A stretch of DNA of 64,000 nt, taken from positions 1 to 64,000 of the forward strand of contig JBDRRF010000041.1 in NCBI GenBank assembly GCA_043825875.1, written 5' to 3'. The notes beneath the pieces were generated by a model, which saw nothing but the letters and a program-made list of their open reading frames with translations, did not search any database and was not told where the DNA came from. The stretch comes from Pseudomonadota bacterium (GTDB taxonomy: Bacteria > Desulfobacterota > Desulfobacteria > Desulfobacterales > RPRI01). Positions 11,482-33,160 of the stretch are shown piece by piece. Both the position numbers and the translations under genes were made by a program. Numbering within the stretch: position 1 is the stretch's first letter; the number at the start of each line of letters is the position of its first letter.

Positions 11482-11486
11482 CTCCT

Positions 11487-13283: not shown

Positions 13284-13298
13284 AAACTCACCATCACT

Positions 13299-13430
13299 CT
13301 ATGGGTTCAAAACCTTTCTTTTCCACTTTTTTTGTAATTCGGAAAATACTTGCAAATGATTGATTTCAGAAGCAGGACAAACATTGCTACAGGTTCCGCA
13401 CATAATACACTCAACCAAACTGTTCCGAAC
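13299..13430 (-). pseudogene. Remnant of SdhB/FrdB-like Fe-S subunit (C-terminal fragment)
   Basis: Hand translation VRNSLVECIMCGTCSNVCPASEINHLQVFSELQKK matches VQNGLYACIMCGECNNVCPAAEIDHLSLYEILRKE of 27662-28360; no intact N-terminus; apparent frameshift in an A run. Confidence 0.8.
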
Positions 13431-13569
13431 CGGCAAGGGACTCAGGTTTGGGCAAGAAGTTATTAGTTTCCACAGTCGGTAGAGATAAAGCTATAATACG
13501 AAGAGATATCAACTATTATCCTGTTTTTCGGCATGTGATTTAAAAGAGTTTAAGCGCAACTTTTTAAAG

Positions 13570-14784
13570 TCAAGTTTTATACAGTCCGGAATCTTTAAGC
13601 CACAAAAAAGTATAACCTTCAATATTATCATTTATTTTCATTTTCACAAATGATTCGAAGCTTTCCCTTTTTGGTATTTTTACTTCAACAGAATCAAAGT
13701 GCTCCGGTATAGGATATTTGCCATATGCATTAACTGCGGCAATAAACGCATGCACATGTTCAGGGGGGGTATCAGCATTTATATTGTTTAAAAAAAGAAT
13801 GAATTTCCCGCCGGAAGCCCCCGCCTTGATATATCTTTTAACACGTGCGATTATCTCGCTGACCGGTCCTTTTTCTAATAGAGATGCATCAAAGCCTATT
13901 TGCAAAGGTATACTGTGTTTGTCTGAAACATTTTTAAAAAACTCAGGTCCTATAATATTGACATCAGGATCCAATGCCAACAAGCATGTATTCATTGTCA
14001 TCTTTAAGCGAGCTTCGACAAGATCCATCGGATTTTTAAGATATGTATCTCCCCAGTTACCTGCCGACATTGCAATAAAGCCGGGTATTTTCAAATTATC
14101 ATTTAAATATTGAACATAAGGTACAACAAAATTATTCATAATCTTCATATTTATAAGAGGTATGCTGGCCCAGGCATCCGCCAGTATTACATTTTGTGCT
14201 TCGGGAAACTGATTCTTAAGGTCTCTTATATATGGAATCATGAGGTTGTCACAAATGCTTCTTAGCATCTCATGAACGAATTTAGGATCTGATGCAATGG
14301 AAGCAATCAGATTTTCGTATCCATAGATATTGCAGGCAGTACAAAAGGGGGAAGAAGCAACCAAACCCGTTCTTGGTAATCCGGTATAATCTTTAGCAAG
14401 TTTGTAGCTATCTACTAATTTGCTGAAACGCCCTGCATACAGTCCGTTAAACCTGATCTTATCGATATCGTTTTTATCTTGAATAACATAATCAGAGCGA
14501 TCTATATCCGGAATATGGTTTGGGAAATATTTTATTTTTTGTCCGATGGATTCAGGTTCAATGTTGTAGACATCCCATTGAGGTTCAGCTACAGTAATGC
14601 CATAGTATTCTGTTAGAAGCAAACTTATCTCGATAAGTGTAAGTGGATTTGTAAATACCTTATCAAAACTTATCTTGGCCATTTTACAGACATGTCCCGG
14701 AAACTGGGCTGAAACCGGAACCTTTATCGGGGTATCAGTAAAAGCTGCACCTAATATACGAATGCTGTCATACCAATAACTCAT
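13570..14784 (-). CDS. Uroporphyrinogen decarboxylase / MtaA-CmuA methyltransferase superfamily protein
   Basis: SPFCTACNIYGYENLI, DPKFVHEML, ADAWAS, GGKFILF...TPPEHVHAFIAAV. Confidence 0.8.
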   Translation of the reverse strand: MSYWYDSIRILGAAFTDTPIKVPVSAQFPGHVCKMAKISFDKVFTNPLTLIEISLLLTEYYGITVAEPQWDVYNIEPESIGQKIKYFPNHIPDIDRSDYVIQDKNDIDKIRFNGLYAGRFSKLVDSYKLAKDYTGLPRTGLVASSPFCTACNIYGYENLIASIASDPKFVHEMLRSICDNLMIPYIRDLKNQFPEAQNVILADAWASIPLINMKIMNNFVVPYVQYLNDNLKIPGFIAMSAGNWGDTYLKNPMDLVEARLKMTMNTCLLALDPDVNIIGPEFFKNVSDKHSIPLQIGFDASLLEKGPVSEIIARVKRYIKAGASGGKFILFLNNINADTPPEHVHAFIAAVNAYGKYPIPEHFDSVEVKIPKRESFESFVKMKINDNIEGYTFLWLKDSGLYKT

Positions 14785-14827: not shown

Positions 14828-16774
14828 TTATATTATTCTTCCGATATTATATCCTTCATATATCGCATCAATCGCCTTACGGGGTGCCGCACAATCTCCA
14901 ACCGCGTATAACTCTTTTACTTTATCTTTCAAAGCATAATAGAGTTGATTATCGGCCCGGTTGCCCATTACCGAAACCACTGTATCTACATTTTCTATTT
15001 TTCTTTCAGCTTGCGTATAAACATTAAATACGGATACCGTATTTCCCGAAACCGCCTTTATAGCTGTGCTGGGGCTGAAAACCACCCCTTTATTAAGTAC
15101 TCTTCGTTGGTATGCGCCCAAATCCGGGCTACTCATAAGTCCCATACCAATAAAGAGTAAAGGTGATATAGCTTCTACTTGTTTGCCCATATCTGTTAAA
15201 TGCTCAATAACGCTCAGAAATTTCCAGTGAGCCTCCCCACCGTCAAGTACTACCACTTTATTCCCAATATCAGCTTTTCCGGAAATAGCATCCCGTTCAT
15301 TGATTACATTAGCCTGTTCCATGCCTGGCAGCGGTGGTATAACAGGCTGAGAACCGGTAGCAACCACTACTGCATGCGGCTGTTCCCGTTCAATTATCTC
15401 CGGTGTTACTTCTACACCGGTATGAATCTTTACTCCCAATATCTCCATCTGCTTTGCCAGGTATCTCGTAATACCTCCGAATTCAGACCTTCCGGAAGCT
15501 TTCATTGCAATGCTGACCTGTCCTCCCAATTCTTCCTCTTTTTCATACAGGATCACTTCATGGCCTCTCAACCTGGCTACCCTGGCCGCCTCCATCCCGG
15601 CAGGCCCACCGCCTACTACCAAGACCTTCTTCTTGGGCGAGGCCGGCGCCAAGGTACCGATTTCTCTTTCAAGTCCTACTACAGGATTCTGCAAACAAGA
15701 CATGGGCTTTCCCTCAAATAATCTGCCCAGGCACCCTTGATTACATGCTATGCAGTAACGAATCTCTTCTATCCTTTTTTCCCTGGCTTTGTTGGGCCAT
15801 TCCGGATCAGCAATAAGGCCCCTTGTCATACCCACCATGTCACCGTGTCCATCAGCTAATATTTTTTCTGCCTGTATCGGGTCATTGATCCTGAAAGTGT
15901 TAATTACAGGAAGAGAAACCGCTTCCTTGAATTCAGCCGCGTAGGCGCTGTGAAACCCTAATGGAACCTGCATTCCGCAGCCCACTGCCACTTGAATTAT
16001 ATAGGGGGGATGCCCGATATGAATATAATCTATCTTTCCTGTAGCTTCCAGCAGCTGAGCAATCTCTTTCCAATCATTTAAAGTAAGCCCGCCTGGAACC
16101 AAATCATCAGCAGGAATCCTTATACCAACAACAAAATCACTTCCCACGGCTTTGCGTATTGCATCAATTACTTCCATTGTCATACGCATCCGGTTCTCCA
16201 GATTGCCCCCATAATCATCCATACGTTTATTAAAATATGAAGACATGAATTCATTAAGCAGATAACCATTGGTACCATGAATTTCTACCCCGTCCATACC
16301 GCCTTTTTTTGAGTGGAGTGCCGATATAGCAAAGGCCTGAACAAGATTTTTGATATCTTCAATCTCCATTTCCTTGGGTGTCTCACGCATTACCGGGCAG
16401 GCAATTGCCGATGGAGCCAGAAGTGGCTGCCGACTATGCCCGCTTTCCATTTGCCTGCCACAATGACTAAGCTGCATTATAATCTTCGTACCATAAGGGT
16501 GCACCGAGTCAGCCAGACGCTTCAACATCGGTACCGACCTTTCTTCAAATATTTCCTGGATATTCAGCATTCCTTTGGTACTTGGCGCTATGGTCATGCC
16601 ACCAGCAATAATGAGCCCCACCCCGCCTTCAGCGCGCATTTTCATATATTCTATATATCTGTCATCTAGTATATTATCCTTCGCAAAGGACGTACCGTGA
16701 GGGGCAAAACCTATCCTGTTGTTAACAGTTATAGATCCTATTTTAATCGGCATAAATAAATATTTATATTCCAT
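14828..16774 (-). CDS. Old yellow enzyme family flavoprotein (FMN, 4Fe-4S, FAD; FadH/BaiCD/NCR-type architecture)
   Basis: RAEGGVGLII, EIHGTNGYLL, DDYGGNLENRMR, CIACNQGC...C, GGGPAGMEAA; ATG 16774 after GGAGGA. Confidence 0.9.
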   Translation of the reverse strand: MEYKYLFMPIKIGSITVNNRIGFAPHGTSFAKDNILDDRYIEYMKMRAEGGVGLIIAGGMTIAPSTKGMLNIQEIFEERSVPMLKRLADSVHPYGTKIIMQLSHCGRQMESGHSRQPLLAPSAIACPVMRETPKEMEIEDIKNLVQAFAISALHSKKGGMDGVEIHGTNGYLLNEFMSSYFNKRMDDYGGNLENRMRMTMEVIDAIRKAVGSDFVVGIRIPADDLVPGGLTLNDWKEIAQLLEATGKIDYIHIGHPPYIIQVAVGCGMQVPLGFHSAYAAEFKEAVSLPVINTFRINDPIQAEKILADGHGDMVGMTRGLIADPEWPNKAREKRIEEIRYCIACNQGCLGRLFEGKPMSCLQNPVVGLEREIGTLAPASPKKKVLVVGGGPAGMEAARVARLRGHEVILYEKEEELGGQVSIAMKASGRSEFGGITRYLAKQMEILGVKIHTGVEVTPEIIEREQPHAVVVATGSQPVIPPLPGMEQANVINERDAISGKADIGNKVVVLDGGEAHWKFLSVIEHLTDMGKQVEAISPLLFIGMGLMSSPDLGAYQRRVLNKGVVFSPSTAIKAVSGNTVSVFNVYTQAERKIENVDTVVSVMGNRADNQLYYALKDKVKELYAVGDCAAPRKAIDAIYEGYNIGRII

Positions 16775-16855
16775 CTTTGCTATATCCTCCAAATAATAGG
16801 ATTAAACGCATATAGTTGTAACTATAATCAAAGCCCCATTTTCTCAAAATAATTC

Positions 16856-18454: not shown

Positions 18455-19504
18455 TCAGATCCCAAGGGGTGTAGCTTTGCCTTGCTCAAAGTATGCCTGG
18501 CAATCATTTATAGGAACACTGTGACCATCCGGAAAAATAAAACGACCATTGGTTCTGCCAAGGCCGCAATGATGAGTAGTATAACCGCCGGTCAAATGGA
18601 AGCCGAACAGTGCTCTGGCCCATAGGGCTACATTCATTTCTACAGTACCACCCGGAGCCTTCATTGTGATATTCCATTGGATGGGAATCGTTACATCGGT
18701 AAACGGATCTTTCCAGAACTCAAGCGGCTCCACATTGATCTCACCTGCACCAAAATCGATAATCTGATCATCCATATAAACACGGCCTGCGAAATGATTC
18801 GCTTCAGGCTCGGCAAAGCAAAATATCTTTATGGATTCGCTGAAGCACCATCCCCAGATATAACCCGTGGAGTGACCGATAAGTGATGGGACGTCAAAAT
18901 CTTTACCGAAGCAGGTTCGTTCACGGACAGCCCAGCCCTCATCGAAGGTATATTTTTTACCCTGATAGGTAAAAGATCCTTCCGCCCAACCAAGGTGTTC
19001 ATTCCCGGCCATTCCTTTAGCGGCAAGGTCGCTCCACGGTCCATGATAGAGAATCACATCGCCTATGCCCCCCATGGTCAGGTCGAGATCAACACCCATG
19101 TGTTCTCCTTTTAATTCCCAATAGGGCGGACGAAATATCATCTGCCGGTTGCCTGCTGTCCAGACGACCCTGTCATCTTCCTTCACAGCTTTAAAATTAT
19201 TGAAACTCATCATTGGATCCATGCGGTTTCCAACAAAGTCATTATTTACCATCGTGCGCTGTTCGCTGGGGGTAATAATCAGATTTGTCTGAAGCAACGC
19301 TCCATCCACGATTCCCCATTTTCTGCCCCCTACATGATAAAGCGTACCGCACACAAAAATATCGTTCCCTCCGGCTTTGCCCAAAACCATCATACCGATA
19401 TGATCCTGAAAATGTTCGGCCAAATGCTCTTTGGGAAGTTCCTCCATATGGCTCATCTCTTCGTCCAGCTTAACATTACAGGTGGCATTCCTTTGCGCAT
19501 TCAT
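18455..19504 (-). CDS. Uncharacterised AttH/CrtC-like protein, paralog X1
   Basis: Aligns by eye with three other ORFs; GNRQ...PPYWELKGEH.GV, EGSFTYQGKKY, WKDPFT...PIQW. Confidence 0.75.
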   Translation of the reverse strand: MNAQRNATCNVKLDEEMSHMEELPKEHLAEHFQDHIGMMVLGKAGGNDIFVCGTLYHVGGRKWGIVDGALLQTNLIITPSEQRTMVNNDFVGNRMDPMMSFNNFKAVKEDDRVVWTAGNRQMIFRPPYWELKGEHMGVDLDLTMGGIGDVILYHGPWSDLAAKGMAGNEHLGWAEGSFTYQGKKYTFDEGWAVRERTCFGKDFDVPSLIGHSTGYIWGWCFSESIKIFCFAEPEANHFAGRVYMDDQIIDFGAGEINVEPLEFWKDPFTDVTIPIQWNITMKAPGGTVEMNVALWARALFGFHLTGGYTTHHCGLGRTNGRFIFPDGHSVPINDCQAYFEQGKATPLGI

Positions 19505-19617: not shown

Positions 19618-20490
19618 TTACGCTCCCAAAACCTGGATCAATATCTCCGGCAAGTTTTTGACTTCGATTTTACCTTTGGATGCCTTTTTAAGGAAGTAAT
19701 GGCCATCGCCACATGGTACCAGAATACTATCCAGGTTCTTCTTTTCGGCTTCCTCAAGAATGCGTTCGGGATTCTGTTTACAGCAATTATGATTATCCAG
19801 ATCTACAAGTGTTAAACCTTTTATGTTGCCCATCACCTTGCGATATCTCGGCCAATCGAGATTGCCCATGTATGGAAAATACCTGTGGCATCCTTCAAAA
19901 TAGCCCATTACTGTGGGTATAATTTCGAGGGTTTTTTCTTCCAGCTTATCCATCATCACGTCATAAACCCACCGATGGCTGCCAGCATCTTCAGGAAATG
20001 TATTTCTGACCAAAGCGGCGCAAACCTGGCATGCATAAATCATGTTTTTTGCCCCGGCCTGCTTTCCCAGATCCCAATTATATTGCATGAAATCTTTACA
20101 TGCCGCTTTTACTTTTTGTTTTTCTTCTTCCGGAATACCCACCGATATGATACTGTCCTCGAGCGGAGGAGCACCACAACAGATTTCTTTTTCAGCAGAA
20201 TAGGTGTAGTCGATTCCGAGCAGATCAAGCAATTTCATCGTATCCCGTAACTTTGATATGCTCATAAAAGGCACATAACAACCAAACGTCAAAAAGTTTT
20301 CGGCTTTTTTCTTGGGTTCGGGAATACCTATGGCTTTCAGCAATCCTGCTTTAAGCAACCATGCAGGAGCATGGTTTCCTGTTTCCCTGATGCATTTCAA
20401 CTGATCTTCACGGCTCCTGTCAGCAGCCAGATATGCGATCACCTGCTGAAAATCTTCAGTAAAAGTTATGTTTCGCTCTTTTAGTTTCAT
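19618..20490 (-). CDS. Stand-alone CCG-domain (HdrB/HdrD-like) Fe-S protein, paralog 1
   Basis: TGNH, FGC, EICCGAP, CQVC, EGCH, CCKQ; ATG 20490 with AAGGAG. Confidence 0.85.
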   Translation of the reverse strand: MKLKERNITFTEDFQQVIAYLAADRSREDQLKCIRETGNHAPAWLLKAGLLKAIGIPEPKKKAENFLTFGCYVPFMSISKLRDTMKLLDLLGIDYTYSAEKEICCGAPPLEDSIISVGIPEEEKQKVKAACKDFMQYNWDLGKQAGAKNMIYACQVCAALVRNTFPEDAGSHRWVYDVMMDKLEEKTLEIIPTVMGYFEGCHRYFPYMGNLDWPRYRKVMGNIKGLTLVDLDNHNCCKQNPERILEEAEKKNLDSILVPCGDGHYFLKKASKGKIEVKNLPEILIQVLGA

Positions 20491-20581
20491 GCTTTTCTCC
20501 TTTTCCGGTAAATCGGGCATATCATATGACCTTGAACACCTCATTAAGCCTTAGCTTGTGATACTAAAAAGACTTCAAATC

Positions 20582-22528
20582 CTAACCTAAAAGGCCCCTT
20601 TGTTCCAAATCGCCTGCAACATCATGTAAGTCCAGATCTTCAAGCGCTTTGCGGGTCTGCAATCCTGTTGCCACATCCCAGTTTCTATAACTGTAGTATT
20701 CGTCTTTCATAACTTCGAATGCTTTCCTGTCAAGCACTTCGCCCTTTCGTGACAGAGGTGCCCCGTCTTTGCCGGGTACCAGACAATCAGGGTTTACGTG
20801 ATCAGATTCCAGTGGTTCAGTGAAGAAGTAATCGGCCACAATGTCATCAACTCTTCCCCTATGCCCTTCACGAACAAGTATTGCCCGCTGCTGGTTAAAG
20901 AGCCTCTCGCCGATTCTGTTAAGACCTTGTTCGTCGATTTGGTTACCAGTTACCAAAGAAAGAAGTTTACTTTCCAGGCTTGGGTCCCCCGCATGATCAT
21001 CAGTGGATGGAAGATCCATAATGGGGTATAGCAAGTCACAGAGTGCCAGGCTGTCTTTGATATACTGCCTGTCCTGTATTCTCTTCGCTGCCAATGCCTT
21101 ACCCTCATAAGTGGAAAAATCAGCAGCCATCTCACTTCCCCAAAATCTTTCGGCTATGGCGCGAAAGACCTGTGAAGAAAAATAGGCTCCTTGGATTCCC
21201 TGATTCCAGGCCAGCCACTTGGAGACCCGAATCGATATCTCATGCAGGTGCTGGATGGGGAGTCTCGGCTCCATGGCATAAAAAAGTGAGGTTGTGATAT
21301 AGAGTCTGGGCCCATAAAAAGTTTTGCATTTTGAGGAAAAATAGGTGACTTCTTTTACTTTTTCTACTGCTTCAGGGCCAAAATGTTCGGCGGCTTTATC
21401 CAAACCCAGTGCCAGCTGACCTCCAAAGCCCTCAAGGTTGGAAATTTTTTTCAAAAGGGTATCTAAAAACTCCAGGCTGCCTATATCCGATAGTGGCAGT
21501 CCGGTATTGCTGTCGTTTAAAATTCCCGCCTCATAACATCGCTCAATCCAGTTTAATATATAATCTAATCCATGGGATTCAATTCCGTATTCATCTATAA
21601 GTCTTGTTGCATGGAAACTTACATCATTCCACTTTCCGTAATATTTAATCGCTCTTGGTTGGTAGAACATGGCCGAGTGGCAAAAAAATTTCCCCTTCTT
21701 TCCATTTTCAGCTTCATAGGTCTTTCTTACGCAGCCGGGGCAACCATAGCAGGGACTTTTTTTCAGCTTTGGAAAGATATCAGGTACGGGGTTCATTTTT
21801 ACCAAATAAGGAGTCTCCATTCTGGAAGGAAATTGCCATAATCCCTGAAGATATCTACCCATCTCCTTTATACGTTCCGGTTGCGCGACATTAACGTTTC
21901 GCTCGGAAGCGTTTACTACCACAGCCTTTAATTTCTTTGAGCCAAAAACAGCCCCTATGCCTGCAGAACCACTGGCATCGTTATCAGCGTGTATGGAGGC
22001 TATCGTCACCTTATTCTCACCGGCTGGGCCAATAGCTACAACCTTAAATGATTTTCCCAGCTCATTTTTTAGAATTTTCCGGGTCTCAACCGCACCCTTT
22101 CCCCGCAAGAATGCAGCATCCTTCAATTGAACAGTGTTGTCCGTAATCAGAAGGTATACAGGCTTTTCCGAGATACCCTGGACTACAATGGCATCATAGC
22201 CGGCAAATTTCAATTCGGCACCCCATGTTCCGCCCAGATTGCAATAGTTGTAGTGATCAGGAGTGGTTTTAGATGTTTTTGCACATACTGCCCACCTGGA
22301 ACCTCCGATCATGCGTACTCCGGCCATAGGACCGGTAGCAAATATGATTCTGTTTTGCTCATCAAAAGCTTTGGTTTCAGGAGGTACTTCATCCCAATAT
22401 ATTTTGGACGCAAGGCCCCGGCCTCCAAGAAATTTAGAGGCATAATTCATGGTGTCATCGTAGAAGATCTTTCCGGTAGAAAGATCAACTCTAAGGATTT
22501 TTCCGGAATATCCAAAATATTTTTCCAT
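20582..22528 (-). CDS. Tungsten aldehyde:ferredoxin oxidoreductase family protein, AOR1
   Basis: GKILRVDLS, GGRGL, ELKFAGYD, IGPAGEN, GSKKLKA, CYGCPGC, DEYGIE, YYSYRNWD. Confidence 0.9.
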   Translation of the reverse strand: MEKYFGYSGKILRVDLSTGKIFYDDTMNYASKFLGGRGLASKIYWDEVPPETKAFDEQNRIIFATGPMAGVRMIGGSRWAVCAKTSKTTPDHYNYCNLGGTWGAELKFAGYDAIVVQGISEKPVYLLITDNTVQLKDAAFLRGKGAVETRKILKNELGKSFKVVAIGPAGENKVTIASIHADNDASGSAGIGAVFGSKKLKAVVVNASERNVNVAQPERIKEMGRYLQGLWQFPSRMETPYLVKMNPVPDIFPKLKKSPCYGCPGCVRKTYEAENGKKGKFFCHSAMFYQPRAIKYYGKWNDVSFHATRLIDEYGIESHGLDYILNWIERCYEAGILNDSNTGLPLSDIGSLEFLDTLLKKISNLEGFGGQLALGLDKAAEHFGPEAVEKVKEVTYFSSKCKTFYGPRLYITTSLFYAMEPRLPIQHLHEISIRVSKWLAWNQGIQGAYFSSQVFRAIAERFWGSEMAADFSTYEGKALAAKRIQDRQYIKDSLALCDLLYPIMDLPSTDDHAGDPSLESKLLSLVTGNQIDEQGLNRIGERLFNQQRAILVREGHRGRVDDIVADYFFTEPLESDHVNPDCLVPGKDGAPLSRKGEVLDRKAFEVMKDEYYSYRNWDVATGLQTRKALEDLDLHDVAGDLEQRGLLG

Positions 22529-22617
22529 AGCCTCACTTCTCCAGCATAAGGGGCTGTGTGCAGACGGGCATAAGTACTACGTATTTTTGTCAAGTTTAAT
22601 AAAAGAAAATGAATGTA

Positions 22618-22670
22618 GAATATTGAACAAGGAATTTCGAACAATATTCATTATTCCTTGTTCGATATTC
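22618..22670. repeat. Intergenic hairpin
   Basis: GAATATTGAACAAGGAAT ... ATTCCTTGTTCGATATTC, 17 of 18 complementary. Confidence 0.7.
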
Positions 22671-22678
22671 AATATAAT

Positions 22679-22725
22679 TAAGCTCCCCGCTGCAAGCAGC
22701 GAGAAATGCGTTTGCTGATGCGTTT
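22679..22725. repeat. REP-like short palindrome
   Basis: TAAGCTCCCCGCTGC-AA-GCAGCGAG tight hairpin right after the X2 stop. Confidence 0.45.
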
Positions 22726-22729
22726 TAAA

Positions 22730-23782
22730 TTATCCCTTAGGAAGGACTGTCGCTTTAGCTGTCTCAAAGTAGGTCTGGCAATCATCCATTGGAACATTGC
22801 GTCCGTCGGAGAAGACTACACTGCCGTTGGTTCTGCCAAGCACACAGTAGTGTGTAGTATAGCCCTTGGCCAAATGAAAGCCGTATAGTGCTCTTGACCA
22901 CGTTGCCACATTCATCTCAACATTTGCTTCATCAGATTCCATTTTAATCTTCCATTTAATTGGAATCGTCACATCTGTCATCGGATCTTTCCACCTTTCC
23001 AAAGGCTCAACTGTGATCTGGCCGGGACCGTAACCAATGACCTGATCACCACTCCAGACACGCCCCACATAACGGTTTACCTCAGGTTCAGCAAAGCAGA
23101 ATACCTTTACAGATTCACTAAAGCACCATCCCCAGATATAACCAGTGGAGTGACCCAATAGTGTTAATACATCCCAACCCTTACCCAGGCAGGTTCGCTC
23201 GCGGACTGCCCAGCCCTCATCGAGGGTATATTTCTTACCCTGGTAGGTGAAACTGCCCGATGCCCAGCAAAGATGCTCATTACCGGCCAAACCTTTTGCG
23301 GCAAGGTCAGTCCACGGACCATGATATGGAATACAATCGCCAATACCGCCAATCGTCAAGTCAAGGTCAACACCCATGTGCTCTCCCTTTAACTCCCAGT
23401 AGGGCATACGGCATGTAATCTGGCGGTTGCCGGTTTTCCAGATTACTTTGTCGGATTCCTCAACCACCTGAAAGTTTGCGGATTCATCCGTCGGTCCAAT
23501 GCGGTTGCCGACAAATTCGTTATTTGATATCGTGCGATGGTCGCTTGGAGTGATAATCAGATTTGTCTGCTGCACGATCCCATCGGTAATGCCCCAGACA
23601 TTTCCCCCGACATGGTACATGCCTAATGCCATAAAAATATCTTTACCTTCACTTTTGCCCATAATCAGAAATGCAATATGATCCTGGAAGTGTTCACTTA
23701 ATTGTTCTTTGGGCAGTTCCCTCATATGATTCATCTCATCTGATGTCTTAACATTACTTGTAGCTTTTTTTTGTTCTTTCAT
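22730..23782 (-). CDS. Uncharacterised AttH/CrtC-like protein, paralog X2
   Basis: Close paralog of X1 (EHFQDHI, QTNLIITPS, GNEHL, DEGWAVRERTC, GHSTGYIWGWCFSES shared). Confidence 0.75.
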   Translation of the reverse strand: MKEQKKATSNVKTSDEMNHMRELPKEQLSEHFQDHIAFLIMGKSEGKDIFMALGMYHVGGNVWGITDGIVQQTNLIITPSDHRTISNNEFVGNRIGPTDESANFQVVEESDKVIWKTGNRQITCRMPYWELKGEHMGVDLDLTIGGIGDCIPYHGPWTDLAAKGLAGNEHLCWASGSFTYQGKKYTLDEGWAVRERTCLGKGWDVLTLLGHSTGYIWGWCFSESVKVFCFAEPEVNRYVGRVWSGDQVIGYGPGQITVEPLERWKDPMTDVTIPIKWKIKMESDEANVEMNVATWSRALYGFHLAKGYTTHYCVLGRTNGSVVFSDGRNVPMDDCQTYFETAKATVLPKG

Positions 23783-23830
23783 CGCTTTACCTTCCTATTA
23801 ATTTAATTTTTGTTGGTTTGTTAATCTTTT

Positions 23831-23954
23831 GTAACTACTCAGGTTGTTTGGTTCACAGTTCACGGTTCACGGTTGATTGCCTTGAGGTCTTCAAAATGTT
23901 CAATCCTAATCGCTCTCTAACCCTGAACCCTGAACTGTGAACCTGAGTAGTAAC
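23831..23954. mobile_element. MITE-like element with internal 7-bp repeats
   Basis: Ends GTAACTACTCAGGT / ACCTGAGTAGTAAC (13 of 14); GGTTCAC-type units on the left, TGAACCC-type units on the right. Confidence 0.7.
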
Positions 23955-23965
23955 CTATTTTTATT

Positions 23966-26038
23966 TTATCCTGCTGAGGCGCTTGATGGAGGAAGTTTAT
24001 CCATACGCTCCAATTCATCAGCCACATCTTTCAAGCCCAGTTCCTCAAGCTTAGCTCTTGTGGGAGCGCCCTCCTTCCACCCTCTGAGTTGATAATAAAC
24101 CGAAAGAAGATTCTCCAGCTTTTCTCTGGGAAAGAGCGCATCGCCTGCCTTACTCTTTTCCTGATAAATGACATCGTGAAACGCATCTACGGCACCCTCT
24201 AAATAGCCGTCTCTGATCCATATTGCTCTCTCCAGATTTACCAGCCTCTCATATTGCTTCATTAAATCCTCTTGCGTGATGTCCTCTCCGAACACCGCAC
24301 TCCATTGTTCAGGTGTTCCATGCACGCTGCCCCACGTAAGTTCCTCTTCCAGCGCTAGCCCTCGCATTAAAGTCAGTTCCGAATTAAAAGAACAAACGGA
24401 GGCGCAGTCGCCTTCCATATGATAATAATCATGAATGATTACTGCTTTAGCAACGTCTTCCCCCCAATAAGTGGTATCCTTAATTTTGTCTGTACCGTAC
24501 CATTTGGTAAGCCATGCAGAATCGGCTCTTGCATTGTTCATTACCTCCAACTCTTTTCCTCTTTTTATACTTTGCAGAGCAAAGAGGGTACACATGGGAC
24601 TGACTGCACAATCCCCCATGCCCTTACCCCACACGATTGCGTGCCGGCGCATGCCGCCGAATTGGCCGCCCTTAGTGTACGTTTTTTGATATAAGTATTC
24701 CATTTCCCGGCGTCTGGGACCAAACTCTTCATGCTCCATAATGTGTTTTGTCGACAGAGCGGGGCCTTTGGCGATCACATCTCCGAAGCCTTCTCTATAA
24801 GCTATTTTATACGTGTATTCTCTTAAGAACTCCTGGCTTCCGTATTTTGACCAGGGCAACCCTGTATTTTCTTCGGTCAGGATTCCTCTTTTGTGAGCTT
24901 CCCGCAGCATATCGAGGTGCATGATAGAACCTCCTCCGGGAGCTTCAGGGCTAAAGTCCACCGGAAATCCCATCCAGGCCATAGAACTGACAAGAGAAGA
25001 ATCGATACCTAAATCGTCGGTGAGTATGGCGAATTCATAAAGAACTCTGCCTGCCGGGCGTCCGCCATAGTATTCCTGTTCCTGTCCGGCCCACAGCAGG
25101 GACTCCCCGCACTCAAACGAACCACTGTGCACAGCATTATCTGCAAGCCTGACTTTAGTCTTACAGATGGTGTTGCAACCGGGACACCCTGACGGACTCA
25201 TTTTTACAAGACCAAGTTCTTGTTCACGGCCCATCTTAGTTCCCTTCGGCCACATATACTGCCAGAAGTATGGCACTGGTGGCCGATGTTTGCCTACGAT
25301 GGTCTTTCCGCCTACGGCTCTCGTTTCACCGGGCAATAACATAGCCACTTTTCTCATATGTTCGTTTACTTCCAGAATTCTTTCAGGATTGGCTACCTTA
25401 ATGCTGCCTGTTCCTCTGATTGCGATAGCCTTGAGATTCTTGGAGCCCATGACTGCCCCATAACCACCGTGGGCAAAAGCGGTATTGCTATCAACGGCAA
25501 TGATGGATTGGATAACCAGATTTTCCCCGGCCGGTCCGATACATGCAGCTTGTACATTTTTGCCATGCATCTGCATTAACTTCATACGGGTTTGGCTTGT
25601 CGTCTTCCCCCAAAGCGAGGCTGCATCCCGTATTTCCACATGCCCGTCTTTTATCCAGAGATAAACAGGTTTTTCGGCCTTACCCTGCACGATAATGGCG
25701 TCATATCCGGCAAACTTTATCTCATATCCCCAACGTCCTAAAGCGATAGATGGGTAAATAGTGCTTACAGGATATATACAGGGAGCTTTGGCAACGCATA
25801 CACTCGGTGCGGCATAGGCTGCACCTGTTGCAGTGAGTGCTCCCGTGGCAAATATTAGTCTGTTTTCAGGGTCTAGAGCGCCAACTTCCGGTGTTATCTC
25901 ATCCCAGTAAATCCTGGCTGCCAGGCCTCTGCCACCAACATATTTTGGCAGATAGTTTGCACTGGGAATCTCGGTAATTATTTTATCAGTTAAATCTACC
26001 CGTAAAATCTTACCTGCGTAACCATATTGTTCCGCCAT
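23966..26038 (-). CDS. Tungsten aldehyde:ferredoxin oxidoreductase family protein, AOR2 (divergent)
   Basis: GKILRVDLT, EIKFAGYD, IGPAGEN, MGSKNLKA, CPGCNTIC, DDLGID, YYQLRGW...PTRAKLEELGL. Confidence 0.88.
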   Translation of the reverse strand: MAEQYGYAGKILRVDLTDKIITEIPSANYLPKYVGGRGLAARIYWDEITPEVGALDPENRLIFATGALTATGAAYAAPSVCVAKAPCIYPVSTIYPSIALGRWGYEIKFAGYDAIIVQGKAEKPVYLWIKDGHVEIRDAASLWGKTTSQTRMKLMQMHGKNVQAACIGPAGENLVIQSIIAVDSNTAFAHGGYGAVMGSKNLKAIAIRGTGSIKVANPERILEVNEHMRKVAMLLPGETRAVGGKTIVGKHRPPVPYFWQYMWPKGTKMGREQELGLVKMSPSGCPGCNTICKTKVRLADNAVHSGSFECGESLLWAGQEQEYYGGRPAGRVLYEFAILTDDLGIDSSLVSSMAWMGFPVDFSPEAPGGGSIMHLDMLREAHKRGILTEENTGLPWSKYGSQEFLREYTYKIAYREGFGDVIAKGPALSTKHIMEHEEFGPRRREMEYLYQKTYTKGGQFGGMRRHAIVWGKGMGDCAVSPMCTLFALQSIKRGKELEVMNNARADSAWLTKWYGTDKIKDTTYWGEDVAKAVIIHDYYHMEGDCASVCSFNSELTLMRGLALEEELTWGSVHGTPEQWSAVFGEDITQEDLMKQYERLVNLERAIWIRDGYLEGAVDAFHDVIYQEKSKAGDALFPREKLENLLSVYYQLRGWKEGAPTRAKLEELGLKDVADELERMDKLPPSSASAG

Positions 26039-26040
26039 AG

Positions 26041-26592
26041 TTAAACACTTCCTTTCGGCTGTATGTATCCGGTTTGAACACCGTTCGGATCAGTGAAATA
26101 GGTAAGCGCTCCGTGTGAGCATGCCTTAACGCAGGCGGGATCTCCACCGCAGAGGTCACATTTGACGGCTTTCTTTTTTGCCTTATTAAACCTGATGCGT
26201 GGTGGGTCATAAGGGCATTTCTCTATGCAGTTCTGGCAGCCAATGCAGAACTTCTGCTCAATTATTCTGGCGCCTGTTGCGGCATCCACTTTGATGGCGC
26301 CCGTCGGACAGTAGCGCAGGCATTGAGGATCGACACATTGCAGGCACGGTTTGGCTGAATTTTCAAAAATATAATTCGTGGATTCCGCAAGCTGTATCCT
26401 GGCCAGCTCGTGTGAACAAACCCCTTCATTGGTAAGAGAACAGGCATGCACGCAATGCATGCAGCAAGTACAGTGTTCTTCATCTACAATGATAACACCT
26501 TTAGATAAAGGTACATGAACCGGTGGCACAAATGCCGGTCTTAGAAGACGTTTTTTGTTGATCTCTTCTGTTTTGATCTTTTGATCAGACAA
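26041..26592 (-). CDS. Polyferredoxin (four 4Fe-4S clusters) AOR partner subunit
   Basis: CTCCMHCVHAC, CLQCVDPQCLRYCP, CIGCQNCIEKCP, CDLCGGDPACVKAC; TTG 26592 after AGAGGAG; stop 2 bp before the AOR2 start. Confidence 0.88.
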   Translation of the reverse strand: MSDQKIKTEEINKKRLLRPAFVPPVHVPLSKGVIIVDEEHCTCCMHCVHACSLTNEGVCSHELARIQLAESTNYIFENSAKPCLQCVDPQCLRYCPTGAIKVDAATGARIIEQKFCIGCQNCIEKCPYDPPRIRFNKAKKKAVKCDLCGGDPACVKACSHGALTYFTDPNGVQTGYIQPKGSV

Positions 26593-26623
26593 TCGAATTC
26601 TCCTCTTAACAGGATTTCTTATT

Positions 26624-27496
26624 CTATAGTCCAAGCACCGGAATCAATACTTCAGGAAGATTTTTAATCTCTATTTTACCACCTCTCTTTGCCGCTGCAG
26701 ATCTTAAGAAGTAATGGCAATCACCGTCGGGAGCAACAATCCGGGTTAAATTATTCTTTTCGGCATTTTCCAAAATAGCATTGGCATCCTGTTTGCAGCA
26801 GACCTTTCTGGGCAGATCCACTATCTCCATGCCTTTAACAGTGCCCAACACTTTACGATATCTTTTCCAATCAAGGTTGCTGTTGTGAGGATAAAACTTG
26901 TGACATCCTTCAAAAAAACCGATTGTTGTCGGCTCAACTTTGAGATCTGTGTTTTCCATCTTATCCATAATCAGATCATAAATATAGCGATGGCGCTCGG
27001 GCTCATCAGGAAACGACCTTTTTATTACAGCGGCACATACCTGGCAGGCATAGACCATTATTTTTTGCCCCGACTTTTCCGCCAGATCAACATTGAACTG
27101 CCTCATTTTATGTGCCTGGTCATCCATTTCTTTCTGACGCTCTTTTGAAATACCTATGATTTCGCGTGAATCCTGAACCATAGGGGCACCGCAACAGACT
27201 TCCTTGTCCGAATAGTTATAATCAATTCCAAGCGCATTTACTATCTTAACCGTATCGCGCAATTTATTAGTGCTCCAAAAAGGTACATAACAACTCCAGA
27301 CGATGAAGTTTTCTGATTTTGGATTTGGTTCCTTTACTCCTATATTCCGAAGCACTCCAGTACGCAAAACCGAAGGGATAGAATGATTTCCCGTCTTCCA
27401 GCAGTCGTCCACCTGTTCCTCCAGACTTCTACCGGCAGCCAGATACTCAATAAACTCTGCAAATTCTTTACTGTACTTAACATTTCTTTTATGCAT
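26624..27496 (-). CDS. Stand-alone CCG-domain Fe-S protein, paralog 2
   Basis: TGNH, WSC, EVCCGAP, CQVC, EGCH, CCKQ, PDGDC. Confidence 0.85.
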   Translation of the reverse strand: MHKRNVKYSKEFAEFIEYLAAGRSLEEQVDDCWKTGNHSIPSVLRTGVLRNIGVKEPNPKSENFIVWSCYVPFWSTNKLRDTVKIVNALGIDYNYSDKEVCCGAPMVQDSREIIGISKERQKEMDDQAHKMRQFNVDLAEKSGQKIMVYACQVCAAVIKRSFPDEPERHRYIYDLIMDKMENTDLKVEPTTIGFFEGCHKFYPHNSNLDWKRYRKVLGTVKGMEIVDLPRKVCCKQDANAILENAEKNNLTRIVAPDGDCHYFLRSAAAKRGGKIEIKNLPEVLIPVLGL

Positions 27497-27530: not shown

Positions 27531-27666
27531 TAAGTATTAAGGTTCATAAATTCGGTTACGTATTGTCATTTCGAACGTAGCGATAAATCTTAATTAAGAT
27601 AAGATGTGATAAAAGATATCTCCCTTCGGTCGATATGACACCGAAACTATGAAATGGAGTACTAAG
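27531..27666. repeat. Nested palindromic element
   Basis: Inner arms TGTCATTTCGA...AAATCT / AGATAT...TCGATATGACA; outer arms TTCATAAATTCGG / CCGAAACTATGAA; CTAAGTATT repeated at 27530 and 27662. Confidence 0.65.
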
Positions 27667-28360
27667 TATTCAAACCTTTTTTTTCCGCTTCTTTTCGCAA
27701 TATTTCATAAAGGCTTAAATGGTCAATTTCGGCAGCAGGGCAAACATTATTGCATTCTCCGCACATGATGCAGGCATAAAGGCCGTTTTGAACTGCTTCT
27801 AAGACCCTGTCTGCTTCATCAAATGGATCATAGTAACGCAATCCCGAAGCAACAATACCTGCGGGACCTATAAATTTTTCAGGATCCTTATCTTCATTAA
27901 TTACCGGACAGGCGGCAATGCAGCACAAGCATCTGCAACACCATTCCAGATTGCCGATCTTTTTGGCCAGGGCCGGATCCATTACTGCAGTAATATCACT
28001 TTCTACAAGCGGTTTCGACCTTACCCTTGCTTCTATCTTTGCTATCCTTTCACGTATCTTGCTCTTATCTACGATAAAATCACGGATTACAGGAAATCCT
28101 TTTAAGGGCTCAAGAACGATATCACGGTCATTACTTATGGGGGTAAAACATGCCATCATCGGTTCACCGTCAAGCATCATGGCACAACGTCCGCATACTC
28201 TCCCCCTGCACGAATAATCAAATGCTATGGCTTCATGGTTTTCATGGACATAAACGAGTATTTCAAGAACCGTTATATTTTTCTTCCAGGGAACATTATA
28301 AGTCTTGTAGTAGGGCATTGCATCTATTGCCGGGTCATATTTAAATATCTTTACATTCAT
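27662..28360 (-). CDS. SdhB/FrdB-like iron-sulfur subunit
   Basis: SCRGRVCGRC...C (2Fe-2S), EPLKGFPVIRDFIVD, CCRCLCCIAACP, CIMCGECNNVCP. Confidence 0.9.
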   Translation of the reverse strand: MNVKIFKYDPAIDAMPYYKTYNVPWKKNITVLEILVYVHENHEAIAFDYSCRGRVCGRCAMMLDGEPMMACFTPISNDRDIVLEPLKGFPVIRDFIVDKSKIRERIAKIEARVRSKPLVESDITAVMDPALAKKIGNLEWCCRCLCCIAACPVINEDKDPEKFIGPAGIVASGLRYYDPFDEADRVLEAVQNGLYACIMCGECNNVCPAAEIDHLSLYEILRKEAEKKGLNT

Positions 28361-28381
28361 CCCTTTTCTCCTTTATATATC

Positions 28382-28499
28382 CTTCCAGATAATGTTTTGT
28401 GCTGCGTTATCAGTCGCCCCACTTCGACAGCGTATCAATTGTACGCTTTACTCAGTGAGGCTCCTTCTGGCCTTGCCAAAAACATTATCTGAAAGTCTA
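28382..28499. mobile_element. MITE-like element inserted at the flavoprotein stop codon
   Basis: Ends CTTCCAGATAATGTTTT / AAAACATTATCTGAAAG (16 of 17); absent at the equivalent position of the paralog (31240-31254). Confidence 0.8.
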
Positions 28500-30383
28500 T
28501 AGGGTAAATTTATTGTCTATGAATTTTTTCATCTGATCAGGGGTGTAGTCCAGGCATACGATCGGTTTTTTATCAAGTTGCATGTTTCCGTTCACCAGTT
28601 TGACGGTAATATTGCACAGCCAGTTCTCATTATCCCTTTTGTTAAAATCGGACCGGTAATGCGGACCCCTTGTCTCGGTTCTCATTGATGCCGCCCTGCA
28701 CATGGCCTCGACCATATCAATCATATTATAATTTTCAATAGCTTCTTTCCATTCCGTATTAAATGTTTTCGTCTTGTTGGAAACGATCATGCGTGGAAGA
28801 TCTTCTTTTCTGATCCGCATTAGCTCTTTGATGGAAGATTCAAGGTTTGCTCCGCTTCTTATTGGCCCTAAAGCCTTATAAGAAGCCCTTTGAATGGCGT
28901 GTCTTACAACATGAGGACGAATCGGTTTATTCACCTTTTTGTTGCGGATTTCATGGACTCGTGCAAATTCATTATTCACCGCCTTCCAGTCTATCTTATT
29001 AATCTGCTGATTATTGGCATATTCAGCCGCCTTAATTCCTGCAAGTGACCCGGCGCTCATACTTAAATCAATACTGCCGGTTCTCGCACCTCTTGAGCCG
29101 CCGCCAACGGGACAGAAAAGACCTGGAATTTCAGTTGATAGATTCTCGTCAATTATTGGGTGTGCATTGGATTCATACCATTCGAGAGCTACTTCAAGGA
29201 GATTTTTTTTAATATCAAATCCGAATGTATCTTTGTAAGGCTTAACATTTCGTCTGTAAAGGTCTCTTAAGCCCTCAATTTGAGCATCGGAACGGCAATC
29301 AATATACACGCCTCCATTGGGGCTACCTTTTCCTTCATAAATTTTTTTGGCGATTTCACGCGCAAACAACCCCCTGTGCATTTCTATTCGGGGAATATGT
29401 TTCATCCAGTAGTCCCCATTCTTGTCGCATATATAAGTATAGTCAACATCATCGGCGCCTATACCTCCATTATAGCTTGCTGCAAGACCTTCGGGGTATA
29501 TACTTATCAGGTCATTTGCCATGAATTCACAATCCGTCATTCCGGCTCCATGCCTGAAAGCTATTGCGTCCACATCTCCGGTATTATCAGGACTGTTAAC
29601 TGAGACAGGCCCTACGGACTTCCATCCATAGTGCCAGGTGCACGGACCTGTGGCGGCAATAGTAGCCTTTGCCCTGAAAACACGAAATGTGCCGGTAGGC
29701 AAATAAATACCCATAGCGCCAATACATTTACCATCTTGTATAAACAGATCAGTTATCATGGTCCTGTCAACCACGTTTATTGCGTATCTTTTAAGCTCGT
29801 CGGATTCATGGCGGCTGAACCCATGTTCTATCACATCCGCACCGGGTATCATGGGTATCGTGATCAGTTTTCCTTCTTTGGTTCTGCTAAAAGCCGTTGT
29901 CCCGCGATTGGCTATATTAAGCAGCAGCTGGTTATGGGAATTATGATTATAGATTGCGCTCATTACCTTCTGATTACCCAAGCCCTCTGAATACCACAAG
30001 TTGAACCTGTATGCCTTATCTCCATCTTTTGTACTGGCAACATAATTATCCCAATTCATGCCAAATCCGCCACTAAATCCAAATGGGCCCTTATCTATGA
30101 TCATTGAATCTGTACCTTGAGCGAATGTCTCCATTGCAGCAGATACAGCAGCAAAGCCGCCCCCAAGAATAAGTACATCCGTATCATATACTTCATAAAC
30201 CGGCTCGGGAACAGCAACGGTATTTCCAGGAATTTGAATTTCTTTTGCCTTATCTTTGCCGGCTGTGTTTGCAGAAGCAAGATTGGCAATACCCAGACTG
30301 CCTGCTATACCGCCTGCATAAATCCCCGCATCTTTAAAAAACTTTCTGCGGGACGTTTTCTTTTTCTCCTTATTTGCCGACAT
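28497..30383 (-). CDS. Tat-exported SdhA/FrdA-family flavoprotein, paralog 2
   Basis: SRRKFFK twin-arginine signal, GGGFAA, AKATIAATG, NTGD, RTETRGPHYRSDF; ATG 30383 after AAGGAGG. Confidence 0.88.
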   Translation of the reverse strand: MSANKEKKKTSRRKFFKDAGIYAGGIAGSLGIANLASANTAGKDKAKEIQIPGNTVAVPEPVYEVYDTDVLILGGGFAAVSAAMETFAQGTDSMIIDKGPFGFSGGFGMNWDNYVASTKDGDKAYRFNLWYSEGLGNQKVMSAIYNHNSHNQLLLNIANRGTTAFSRTKEGKLITIPMIPGADVIEHGFSRHESDELKRYAINVVDRTMITDLFIQDGKCIGAMGIYLPTGTFRVFRAKATIAATGPCTWHYGWKSVGPVSVNSPDNTGDVDAIAFRHGAGMTDCEFMANDLISIYPEGLAASYNGGIGADDVDYTYICDKNGDYWMKHIPRIEMHRGLFAREIAKKIYEGKGSPNGGVYIDCRSDAQIEGLRDLYRRNVKPYKDTFGFDIKKNLLEVALEWYESNAHPIIDENLSTEIPGLFCPVGGGSRGARTGSIDLSMSAGSLAGIKAAEYANNQQINKIDWKAVNNEFARVHEIRNKKVNKPIRPHVVRHAIQRASYKALGPIRSGANLESSIKELMRIRKEDLPRMIVSNKTKTFNTEWKEAIENYNMIDMVEAMCRAASMRTETRGPHYRSDFNKRDNENWLCNITVKLVNGNMQLDKKPIVCLDYTPDQMKKFIDNKFTL

Positions 30384-30465
30384 CTTTTTCCCTCCTTTCA
30401 AGATCCGGGAAATACTTTTTTTAATACATTGTTCGATGTTTGAGTTCCGATGGCAGTTGAGTCCC

Positions 30466-31239
30466 TTATCTGGCAGTATATCCGGCATCAACTACAAGTA
30501 TGTGGCCGGTAACATAATCAGATGCCTTGGAAGCCAGATAAATGGCTGTACCCTTTAAATCATCCGGCACACCCACGCCATGCATCGGTACAGTGGGCGC
30601 CAGCAATTTTACAGCCTCATCCCAGGCATCAGCTCCTCCGAGTTCTGTCCTAAAAAATCCCGGAGCAATGGCATTTACATTTATTCCATATGAAGCATAT
30701 TCAATAGCCATTTCCCGGGTAAGATTTGAAATCGCACCTTTTGATGCGCAATAGGCAGGAGTCGGAAATAAAGTGCTTCCTACTTGACCGAACATAGAAC
30801 TGATGTTGATTATTTTGCCGCTTTTTTGCTTTATCATCTGCCTTGCAGCTTCTCTTGCACAGAGGAAGACCCCGGTGATGTTTGTAGTCATTATATCATT
30901 CCAGTCTGCCAGTTCATATTCATGAACAGGCAGAGGTTTGCCTGCTATTCCCGCATTGTTGAATATTATATCTAACTTTCCGAACTTCTTTATTGTTTCT
31001 GAAACCATACGTTGAACATCATCTTCCTTGCGAACATCAGCTGGTATTATAAAAGCTGTGCCACCAAGTTCCTTGATTTTTTTCGCTACAATAGCTAAAC
31101 GATCTTCACGACGGGCAACACACACTACATTGGCTCCAACACTAGCCATAGCCTCAGCAAAAGCTGCTCCCAAACCACTGCTTGCCCCGGTCACAATGGC
31201 TACTTTTCCCGTAAGGTCAAATAAATCATTTACATTCAT
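30466..31239 (-). CDS. SDR family oxidoreductase
   Basis: TGASSGLG, NNAG, YCASK, NAIAPG. Confidence 0.92.
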   Translation of the reverse strand: MNVNDLFDLTGKVAIVTGASSGLGAAFAEAMASVGANVVCVARREDRLAIVAKKIKELGGTAFIIPADVRKEDDVQRMVSETIKKFGKLDIIFNNAGIAGKPLPVHEYELADWNDIMTTNITGVFLCAREAARQMIKQKSGKIINISSMFGQVGSTLFPTPAYCASKGAISNLTREMAIEYASYGINVNAIAPGFFRTELGGADAWDEAVKLLAPTVPMHGVGVPDDLKGTAIYLASKASDYVTGHILVVDAGYTAR

Positions 31240-31251
31240 CCCTTATTTCCT

Positions 31252-33141: not shown

Positions 33142-33160
33142 TTGTGTCTCTCCTTCTTTA

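Follow-up and report, generated by a model that had tools for sequence, protein, structure and literature searches.

The first 64,000 nucleotides of contig JBDRRF010000041.1 (GenBank assembly GCA_043825875.1, a bacterium of the Desulfobacterales; this whole stretch is called the window below) encode two proteins of the aldehyde oxidoreductase (AOR) family, named AOR1 and AOR2 here, which carry an additional conserved cysteine close to the position of the classical EYE motif. Judged from sequence comparison, it is rather probable that AOR1 and AOR2 represent two deep, uncharacterised clades of the Cys-liganded branch of this family, whose chemistry is most likely other than aldehyde oxidation. 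Cys-liganded enzymes of the AOR family as such are known; new are the two uncharacterised clades and a set of partner genes that has not been described before. All genes belonging to the finding are located on the minus strand.

Family membership and cofactor sites

AOR1 (648 aa, positions 20582-22528) and AOR2 (690 aa, 23966-26038) both scored above the Pfam gathering cut-offs for AFOR_N (2e-65 and 1.2e-64, respectively) and AFOR_C (1.7e-42 and 1.3e-35). They are Cys-type large subunits of the aldehyde or tungsten-containing oxidoreductase (AOR/WOR) kind and share 31% identity with each other (BLASTP). A third member of the family, AOR3 (55873-57936, minus strand), is of the classical aldehyde-oxidoreductase type and aligned over its full length with Pyrococcus furiosus AOR (372 bits). 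Its start probably lies about 70 codons inside its open reading frame (ORF). The motifs KFFCHS in AOR1 (21674-21691), SFECGE in AOR2 (25103-25120) and PEYET in AOR3 (codons at 56744-56757), which a first-pass annotation of the window had pointed out, were all confirmed by translation. The additional cysteines are Cys283 in AOR1 (codon 21680-21682) and Cys310 in AOR2 (codon 25109-25111).

The four cysteine ligands of a [4Fe-4S] cluster were found in both proteins, namely C260, C263, C266 and C497 in AOR1, and C285, C288, C292 and C549 in AOR2. Within the respective clades, conservation of these residues is complete or no lower than 90%. The Fe-S motif of AOR1 reads CxxCxxC and is thereby one residue shorter than in many relatives. 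Furthermore, both sequences contain DxxGL[DE]x and DxxxxC, which we take to be the pterin-binding motifs of the AOR family. AOR1 and AOR2 are thus probably cofactor-competent large subunits that bind a bis-metallopterin with W or Mo and one [4Fe-4S] cluster.

Neither protein is isolated in sequence space. The nearest relative of AOR1 is 87% identical and thousands of relatives share 55-62% identity, the named ones originating from metagenome-assembled genomes (MAGs) of Dehalococcoidia, Chloroflexota and Deltaproteobacteria. Thousands of relatives were likewise retrieved for AOR2, at identities of 55% and lower. An exhaustive search yielded 7753 cluster representatives at E ≤0.001.

An invariant cysteine in the column of known metal ligands

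In the accessible text of a 2025 review, Cys322 of BamB, the AOR-family subunit of benzoyl-CoA reductase (BCR), and Cys336 of YdhV are described as protein ligands of the metal, a ligand that is absent there from all other family members (PMC12096430). Using 4z3w_A as the BamB structure reference and the Escherichia coli K-12 record for YdhV, we compared the position of the cysteine by several alignment methods. Residues 259-387 of AOR1 were placed on residues 298-420 of BamB by phmmer, gap-free across the Fe-S motif and with Cys283 on Cys322, and BLASTP set Cys283 of AOR1 opposite Cys310 of AOR2. When 167 and 173 sequences were aligned with MAFFT, C283 of AOR1, C310 of AOR2, C336 of YdhV and the cysteine of a BamB ortholog fell into one column. 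This ortholog, from a Deltaproteobacteria MAG (locus L047, 12014-13993; 895 bits against 4z3w_A), similarly placed the cysteine of its TMKCFTK motif on Cys322. The correspondence to the tungsten ligand of BamB, suspected in the first-pass annotation, therefore held, with YdhV sharing the same column.

Of the 167 sequences, 160 have cysteine in this column. Proline takes its place in the five PEYE-type sequences, one residue before the first glutamate of EYE. Within the AOR1 and AOR2 clades the cysteine was invariant (34/34 and 33/33 sequences, respectively), and in hmmalign alignments all 120 nearest relatives of AOR1 and all 120 of AOR2 possessed it, one of the sequences being the window's own protein. 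Among 140 representatives clustered at 50%, nine lacked the region in question and were excluded; cysteine was present in 119 of the remaining 131. From the alignments we infer that Cys283 and Cys310 would serve as a protein ligand to W or Mo and provide a fifth sulfur.

Placement in the family tree

Trees were calculated with FastTree from 173 sequences and with IQ-TREE from 56 sequences (LG+C20+F+G4, SH-aLRT support). In both, the Cys-type sequences were separated from the classical PEYE sequences (support of 99 for this branch in IQ-TREE). YdhV, the AOR1 clade (support 100) and the AOR2 clade (99) together formed one clade with a support of 100, and BamB was located outside of it. The BamB orthologs clustered with a few representatives. 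AOR1 and AOR2 hence form supported clades of their own, apart from the classical aldehyde oxidisers. The first-pass annotation had suggested uncharacterised clades with a chemistry beyond simple aldehyde oxidation; the position in the tree bears out the former part, and the latter is argued below from the active-site residues.

The view that the two proteins are not true BamB was also corroborated by the scores against 4z3w_A, which amounted to 177 bits for AOR1 and 156 bits for AOR2 compared to the 895 bits of the real ortholog. The best NCBIfam model for both was YdhV, with 310.8 bits for AOR1 and 264.5 bits for AOR2 at a cut-off of 868. A short-motif search for BamB among 380 retrieved proteins found none, and one protein considered as a BamB candidate (P0313) was no nearer to BamB than to AORs.

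Second shell residues and expected chemistry

According to the accessible part of the review cited above, BamB and YdhV do not have the second shell formed by Thr243, Glu313, Tyr427 and His448 (PMC12096430). The Glu313 and His448 columns were occupied by Ala and a gap in AOR1, by Ser and a gap in AOR2, and by Glu and His in AOR3. At the position of Thr243, AOR1 has a gap and AOR2 a lysine. AOR3 carries Thr, Glu, His and His at the four positions. Since the cysteine is present and the second shell residues Glu313 and His448 are missing, AOR1 and AOR2 most likely carry out redox chemistry different from the oxidation of aldehydes. In the available sections of a 2026 classification, none of 46 aldehydes gave activity with an enzyme of the YdhV clade, and BCR, which reduces an aromatic ring, is listed as the sole family member with non-aldehyde chemistry (PMC13328260).

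Gene layout and candidate partner proteins

In the direction of transcription, the cluster begins with a Tat-type (twin-arginine translocation) TfrA/SdhA-like flavoprotein that has an RR motif in its sequence (31252-33168). A gene for a short-chain dehydrogenase/reductase (SDR) separates it from a second TfrA/SdhA-like flavoprotein with a twin-arginine N-terminus (28497-30491); the motifs RRKFF and RREFL occur across both copies. An E-type SdhB/TfrB-N-like Fe-S protein follows (27662-28360), recognised by its NCBIfam TfrB match and a CxxCxxCxxxCP third-cluster motif. It precedes CCG2 (26624-27496), an HdrB/SdhE-like protein of 290 aa with two CCG domains (Pfam CCG, 7e-14), the polyferredoxin (26041-26634, ORF of 197 aa), and AOR2. 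Downstream of AOR2, a 350-aa protein with a weak Pfam Lipocalin_9 match is encoded (22730-23782), followed by AOR1 and, directly downstream of it, by CCG1 (19618-20544, Pfam CCG domain), a paralog of CCG2. A 349-aa paralog of the 350-aa protein (18455-19504) comes next, and a CrtI/CrtD-like flavoprotein, a fusion of an Old Yellow Enzyme (OYE) with an FAD domain and a UroD/MtaA-like protein follow in transcription order. All of them lie on the minus strand.

The gene orders CCG2-polyferredoxin-AOR2 and AOR1-CCG1 given in the first-pass annotation were confirmed. The spacing is tight: CCG2 and the polyferredoxin gene are at most 31 nt apart, the polyferredoxin gene ends 2 nt ahead of AOR2, and AOR1 and CCG1 are separated by about 91 nt. 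The polyferredoxin probably starts with the TTG at 26592, which is preceded by the ribosome-binding box AAGAGGAG and lies 31 nt after the CCG2 stop. For CCG1, the true start is probably Met19 (20490), giving 290 aa, because its relatives measure 288-290 aa. The third paralog, CCG3 (51503-52369, minus strand), is located 3.5 kb downstream of AOR3 and starts 6 nt past an SDR stop. Thus, each of the three AOR genes in the window has a CCG gene on the same strand within 4 kb. A hairpin of 10 base pairs with a T-poor tail was found at 22683-22706 (minus strand), past the 350-aa gene and before AOR1, and may mark a boundary between transcription units. Scans for promoters and terminators did not yield more sites than shuffled sequence (40 versus 42.5 and 15 versus 17.3, respectively), and an Rfam scan of the window returned no match, the Moco riboswitch included.

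The polyferredoxin contains four Cys cluster motifs and matched Pfam Fer4_11 and related 4Fe-4S dicluster domains. It is of the WorS/YdhY type, with 32% identity to E. coli YdhY and 34% to a WorS-like protein of L047. The match to the BamC-like protein of the same locus was marginal (E 0.002). By sequence and position, this protein is likely the small subunit of AOR2.

CCG1, CCG2 and CCG3 are paralogs of approximately 290 aa with two CCG domains and pairwise identities of 47-67% (about 49-50% between CCG1 and CCG2). Their family has eight invariant cysteines plus one to three more in the last motif, in the pattern C...CCG...CxxC. The predicted model of CCG1 (mean local confidence, pLDDT, 88.8) found its best fold matches in LutA (E 1e-9), EtfD and HdrB (E 6e-6 to 1e-5). 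The CCG proteins are HdrB/SdhE/LutA-like proteins with noncubane-cluster motifs, a type that exchanges electrons with quinone or with thiol/disulfide. The family is small: the search returned 29 members, which come from Desulfobacterium-like and other MAGs, with several paralogs per contig. A fourth paralog (P0414, in the cluster of P0383 and 70% identical to CCG1) is probably encoded on the same contig; as it is absent from the ORFs of the window, it probably lies outside. The upstream stretch 27662-33168 (minus strand), comprising the two Tat flavoproteins and the E-type SdhB, resembles the periplasmic SdhABE of methylmenaquinol:fumarate reductase (MFR) or a split TfrAB. CCG2 may therefore be the partner of the polyferredoxin and AOR2 downstream or of the flavoprotein and SdhB upstream, and the latter assignment is equally good or better.

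Neighbourhoods of AOR1-type genes

The neighbourhoods of AOR1-clade genes were inspected at the best 80 of 623 confirmed loci. SDRs were the commonest neighbours (19/80 within 5 kb), followed by further AOR1 paralogs and OYE-type proteins (7/80 each). A polyferredoxin gene was present at seven loci, at four of them directly upstream of the AOR1-type gene. At none of the 80 loci was the AOR1-type gene flanked by a member of the window's CCG family; the one distant CCG protein detected by BLASTP is encoded approximately 6 kb away (L037), and the hidden Markov model of the family gave three weak, non-adjacent matches. Similarly, the family of the 350-aa protein did not occur at any of the 80 loci. 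On the basis of these neighbourhoods, the AOR1 type is usually stand-alone, and its pairing with a CCG protein is specific to this lineage.

One locus, L047 (10001-17426 of JACQYK010000335.1, Deltaproteobacteria MAG), contains an AOR1-clade gene together with two bamB orthologs, a BamC-like protein and a BamD-like protein with HdrC and CCG parts. On its upstream side, an aryl-CoA-ligase-like gene and a TRAP transporter are encoded. A link between an AOR1-type gene and bam genes was seen at this one of the 80 loci only.

Alternative explanations

Several observations count against Cys-liganded enzymes with non-aldehyde chemistry. The contact between the cysteine and the metal is deduced from alignments at 25-31% identity, and the AOR2-clade profile, which matched BamB over its full length, was out of register at the Fe-S motif and was not used for the cysteine. 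The tree sample was picked by similarity to AOR1 and AOR2, represents YdhV by one long branch, and was rooted by assumption on the classical group. Among solved structures, BamB and the aldehyde oxidisers scored about equally with AOR1 and AOR2 themselves and with the profiles of their clades. With the AOR1-clade profile, BamB reached 296 bits and the aldehyde oxidisers 302-307; with the AOR2-clade profile, these values were 290 and 295-348 bits, the N-terminal domain supplying most of each score (~230 bits). Furthermore, the equivalent of Tyr427 is retained in the AOR1 clade (YxPR, according to both alignment and profile search), though not in the AOR2 clade, and a nearly invariant histidine occurs in the AOR1 clade three residues beyond the His448 position; oxo-transfer chemistry is therefore conceivable for AOR1. 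The frequency of SDRs near AOR1-type genes also fits alcohol and aldehyde metabolism. AOR1 and AOR2 might accordingly be aldehyde/carboxylate oxidoreductases with variant shells that serve alcohol-aldehyde-acid steps beside SDR genes, a view favoured by the retained tyrosine motif and by scores against aldehyde-oxidiser structures as high as those against BamB. We consider it improbable, however. Neither protein has a counterpart of Glu313 or His448, and the cysteine is invariant; for the known enzymes with this cysteine, the accessible sections of the cited sources give either no aldehyde oxidation or ring reduction; and the window already encodes the classical AOR3 beside a coniferyl-alcohol-dehydrogenase-like SDR. 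There is also a slight chance that the conserved cysteine is not a metal ligand in the two clades and has a structural or second-sphere role or binds another cluster instead. Its distance from the first Fe-S cysteine does vary (+23 in AOR1 and BamB, +25 in AOR2, +29 in YdhV), but it is invariant across highly divergent clades and shares its column with two experimentally supported ligand cysteines.

With respect to the partners, two arrangements compete for the CCG proteins. One follows the minimal BamBCD-like layout proposed in the first-pass annotation: CCG2, polyferredoxin and AOR2, and likewise AOR1 and CCG1, would form physical complexes in which the HdrB-like protein passes electrons from a thiol or quinol via Fe-S clusters to the Cys-liganded W, where a difficult substrate, for example a ring or an unactivated double bond, is reduced. 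The tight gene spacing, the presence of a CCG gene near every AOR gene of the window, the HdrB/LutA/EtfD fold of the CCG1 model and the AOR1-clade gene of L047, situated directly upstream of bamB-bamB-bamC-bamD-like genes, agree with this idea. For two related MAGs, proteins resembling AOR1 and the CCG paralogs come from contigs of identical length (25985 and 32763 bp), which fits local synteny only. Of the proposed layout, the gene order stood; the polyferredoxin turned out not to be BamC-like, neither it nor the CCG proteins are orthologs of BamC or BamD, and the CCG family was adjacent to no AOR1-type gene at the 80 loci. In addition, the 29 proteins of the CCG family face thousands of relatives for each of AOR1 and AOR2. 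The paralogs do not track the AORs either, because CCG1, which stands beside the Cys-type AOR1, is 67% identical to CCG3, whose nearest AOR is the classical AOR3, and only 50% identical to CCG2. An HdrA-like module supplying low-potential electrons is lacking: as the first-pass annotation had stated, no HdrA-like gene was detected among the scanned window ORFs of at least 150 aa, nor was a NuoEFG-like one. Such minimal Bam-like reductases are hence rather unlikely. The other arrangement deserves serious consideration, at odds somewhat short of even. Here, the flavoprotein at 28497-30491, the SdhB at 27662-28360 and CCG2 would constitute an MFR SdhABE-like or split TfrAB reductase, and the AORs would be ordinary ferredoxin-linked enzymes sharing the operon. 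MFR, in the accessible text of its description, consists of an SdhA with a Tat extension of about 40 residues, an E-type SdhB and an HdrB-like SdhE with ten cysteines (PMC2680327). The flavoproteins of the window matched nearly the full length of the MFR SdhA model, N-terminal extension included, and the NCBIfam TfrB model (488 aa) covered the SdhB-like protein with its positions 4-222 (1.5e-47) and CCG2 with its positions 260-419, in gene order. The order flavoprotein-SdhB-CCG2 and the motifs fit those of SdhABE, the number of cysteines in the CCG family is comparable to that of the ten-cysteine SdhE, and the MFR architecture fits at least as well as the Bam-like one. On the other hand, SdhB and CCG2 are separated by 165 nt, compared to at most 31 nt between CCG2 and the polyferredoxin gene, CCG1 and CCG3 have no adjacent SdhA or SdhB, and all NCBIfam matches of flavoprotein, SdhB and CCG2 remained far under the curated cut-offs, without a match to an SdhE-specific model.

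Surrounding genes

Three paralogs of approximately 350 aa are encoded on the minus strand at 33937-34995, 22730-23782 and 18455-19504. The latter two are 67% identical to each other, and the first one shares 33-36% identity with both. No family scored above its cut-off for these proteins; a language model returned clusters of tocopherol cyclases, DUF7064/7065 and DUF2804 as look-alikes (0.94-0.96 for the protein at 22730-23782, which also resembles AttH-like proteins). They may be hydratases or cyclases of the same pathway.

Two four-gene sets, each comprising a DUF1302-like protein, a DUF1329 protein, an MMPL/RND-like transporter and a BNR/Ycf48-like protein, are located at 38301-45050 and 57801-63909 (minus strand). 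In the second set, the place of the DUF1302-like protein is taken by an ORF without assigned family (62869-63909). Sets of this kind occur beside pathways for hydrophobic substrates, and their presence suggests that the window is a catabolic island. Two reductases that fuse an OYE-type FMN domain with Fe-S and FAD parts, of the enoate-reductase/BaiCD/mycofactocin-OYE type, are encoded at 14828-16792 and 45803-47785 (minus strand). The segment 51503-57936 (minus strand) holds AOR3, the coniferyl-alcohol-dehydrogenase-like SDR, a 175-aa protein without family, two SDRs and CCG3.

At the downstream end of the AOR cluster (10306-14784, minus strand), a sulfotransferase-family protein, two proteins without family and the UroD/MtaA-like protein were found. 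The plus strand at 127-7555 encodes a MetV-like protein and MetF, followed by three proteins with glutamate-synthase domains; two have the FMN domain, in one case alongside a ferredoxin domain, and the third, of 885 aa, has a GXGXG domain. Proteins with glutamate-synthase domains are unusual company for MetV-like/MetF methylenetetrahydrofolate reductase.

Proposed role and significance

AOR1 and AOR2 would most likely carry out a redox reaction that does not involve an aldehyde, and their substrate is probably a compound processed by the anaerobic catabolic island around them. Besides SDRs, this island encodes Tat flavoproteins, OYE-type ene-reductases, hydratase- or cyclase-like proteins and uptake systems for hydrophobic compounds. 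AOR2 and the YdhY-like ferredoxin would most likely act as a pair of large and small subunit, the latter linking the [4Fe-4S] cluster of AOR2 to an external redox partner. For AOR1, the electron partner could be a ferredoxin or, possibly, CCG1.

Among the sequences sampled, the same cysteine marks a far larger set of proteins than BamB and YdhV, as all 240 nearest relatives and most of the representatives covering the region possess it. Most of these proteins belong to uncultured Dehalococcoidia and Desulfobacterota; a genome often encodes several of them, beside SDR and ene-reductase genes. If they are indeed non-aldehyde enzymes, as yet undescribed W/Mo chemistry would underlie a sizeable share of the anaerobic carbon turnover in sediments. 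The window offers two such enzymes plus candidate partners for expression. A more far-reaching proposal is that the AOR1 and AOR2 clades, with their thousands of members in Dehalococcoidia and Desulfobacterota, constitute a new functional class of Cys-liganded non-aldehyde W/Mo enzymes, to which an HdrB-like protein without further subunits, and perhaps a polyferredoxin, would have been added in the present lineage to give a minimal, flavin-free reductase driven by thiol or quinol for isoprenoid, alicyclic or aromatic substrates; we assign it a low probability. The part of the literature covered contained no description of the AOR1 and AOR2 clades or of a stand-alone HdrB-like protein as the partner of an AOR, and the available sections of the 2026 classification list no class with an HdrB-like partner besides BCR (PMC13328260).

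Comparison with known systems

AOR1 and AOR2 resemble the classical AORs (P. furiosus AOR, FOR and WOR1, and Aromatoleum AOR) in fold family and N-terminal domain, and also in their Fe-S ligands and pterin motifs. They differ from them in the missing counterparts of Glu313 and His448 and in the cysteine, which is located one residue ahead of the EYE position.

The CCG proteins have two CCG domains, like HdrB, the SdhE of E-type succinate:quinone oxidoreductases and of MFR, LutA and EtfD. Unlike these, they gave weak sequence matches (TfrB, 1.6e-9; HdrB, 1.7e-3) and form a narrow, lineage-restricted family with an N-terminal extension of about 60 residues, the last Cys motif being incomplete in the copies of the window.

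The resemblance to the BamB system comprises the cysteine aligned with the tungsten ligand Cys322 and the genes for a polyferredoxin and CCG-domain proteins nearby. In contrast to BamC with its three clusters, however, the polyferredoxin has four motifs and is YdhY/WorS-like. The BamD-like protein of L047 has an HdrC-type ferredoxin domain ahead of its CCG part, which CCG1, CCG2 and CCG3 do not have, and CCG1 and CCG2 matched it only at E ~0.015. Equivalents of BamE to BamI, as in a Bam operon, are not present, and AOR1 and AOR2 lie outside the branch of BamB and score far below its ortholog.

The closest known counterpart is E. coli YdhV (WorL of Class V WOR, clade 41), a bis-Mo-molybdopterin enzyme of unknown reaction, together with its ferredoxin YdhY. 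Both window proteins remained far below the cut-off of the YdhV equivalog model. Along its whole length, AOR2 is ~25% identical to YdhV; AOR1 reaches 41% identity within the N-terminal domain and 24% within a C-terminal stretch. AOR1 also has no ferredoxin gene. In the accessible text of the 2026 classification, Class V WOR is defined by a WorS that carries a Tat signal or a membrane segment, and by additional subunits of membrane or cytochrome type (PMC13328260). Unlike YdhY and Class V WorS, the polyferredoxin has an N-terminus without Tat signal, membrane segment or hydrophobic stretch, and a BLASTP comparison of 18 proteins (AOR cluster and comparators) revealed no homologue of YdhU, YdhW or YdhT, with YdhX matched by the polyferredoxin alone. 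Nevertheless, AOR1 and AOR2 share the cysteine column with YdhV (Cys336), like YdhV they do not possess the classical Glu and His of the second shell, and the gene immediately upstream of AOR2 encodes a four-cluster ferredoxin resembling YdhY. By these sequence comparisons, AOR1 and AOR2 are neither BamB nor YdhV proper, and they stand nearer to YdhV.

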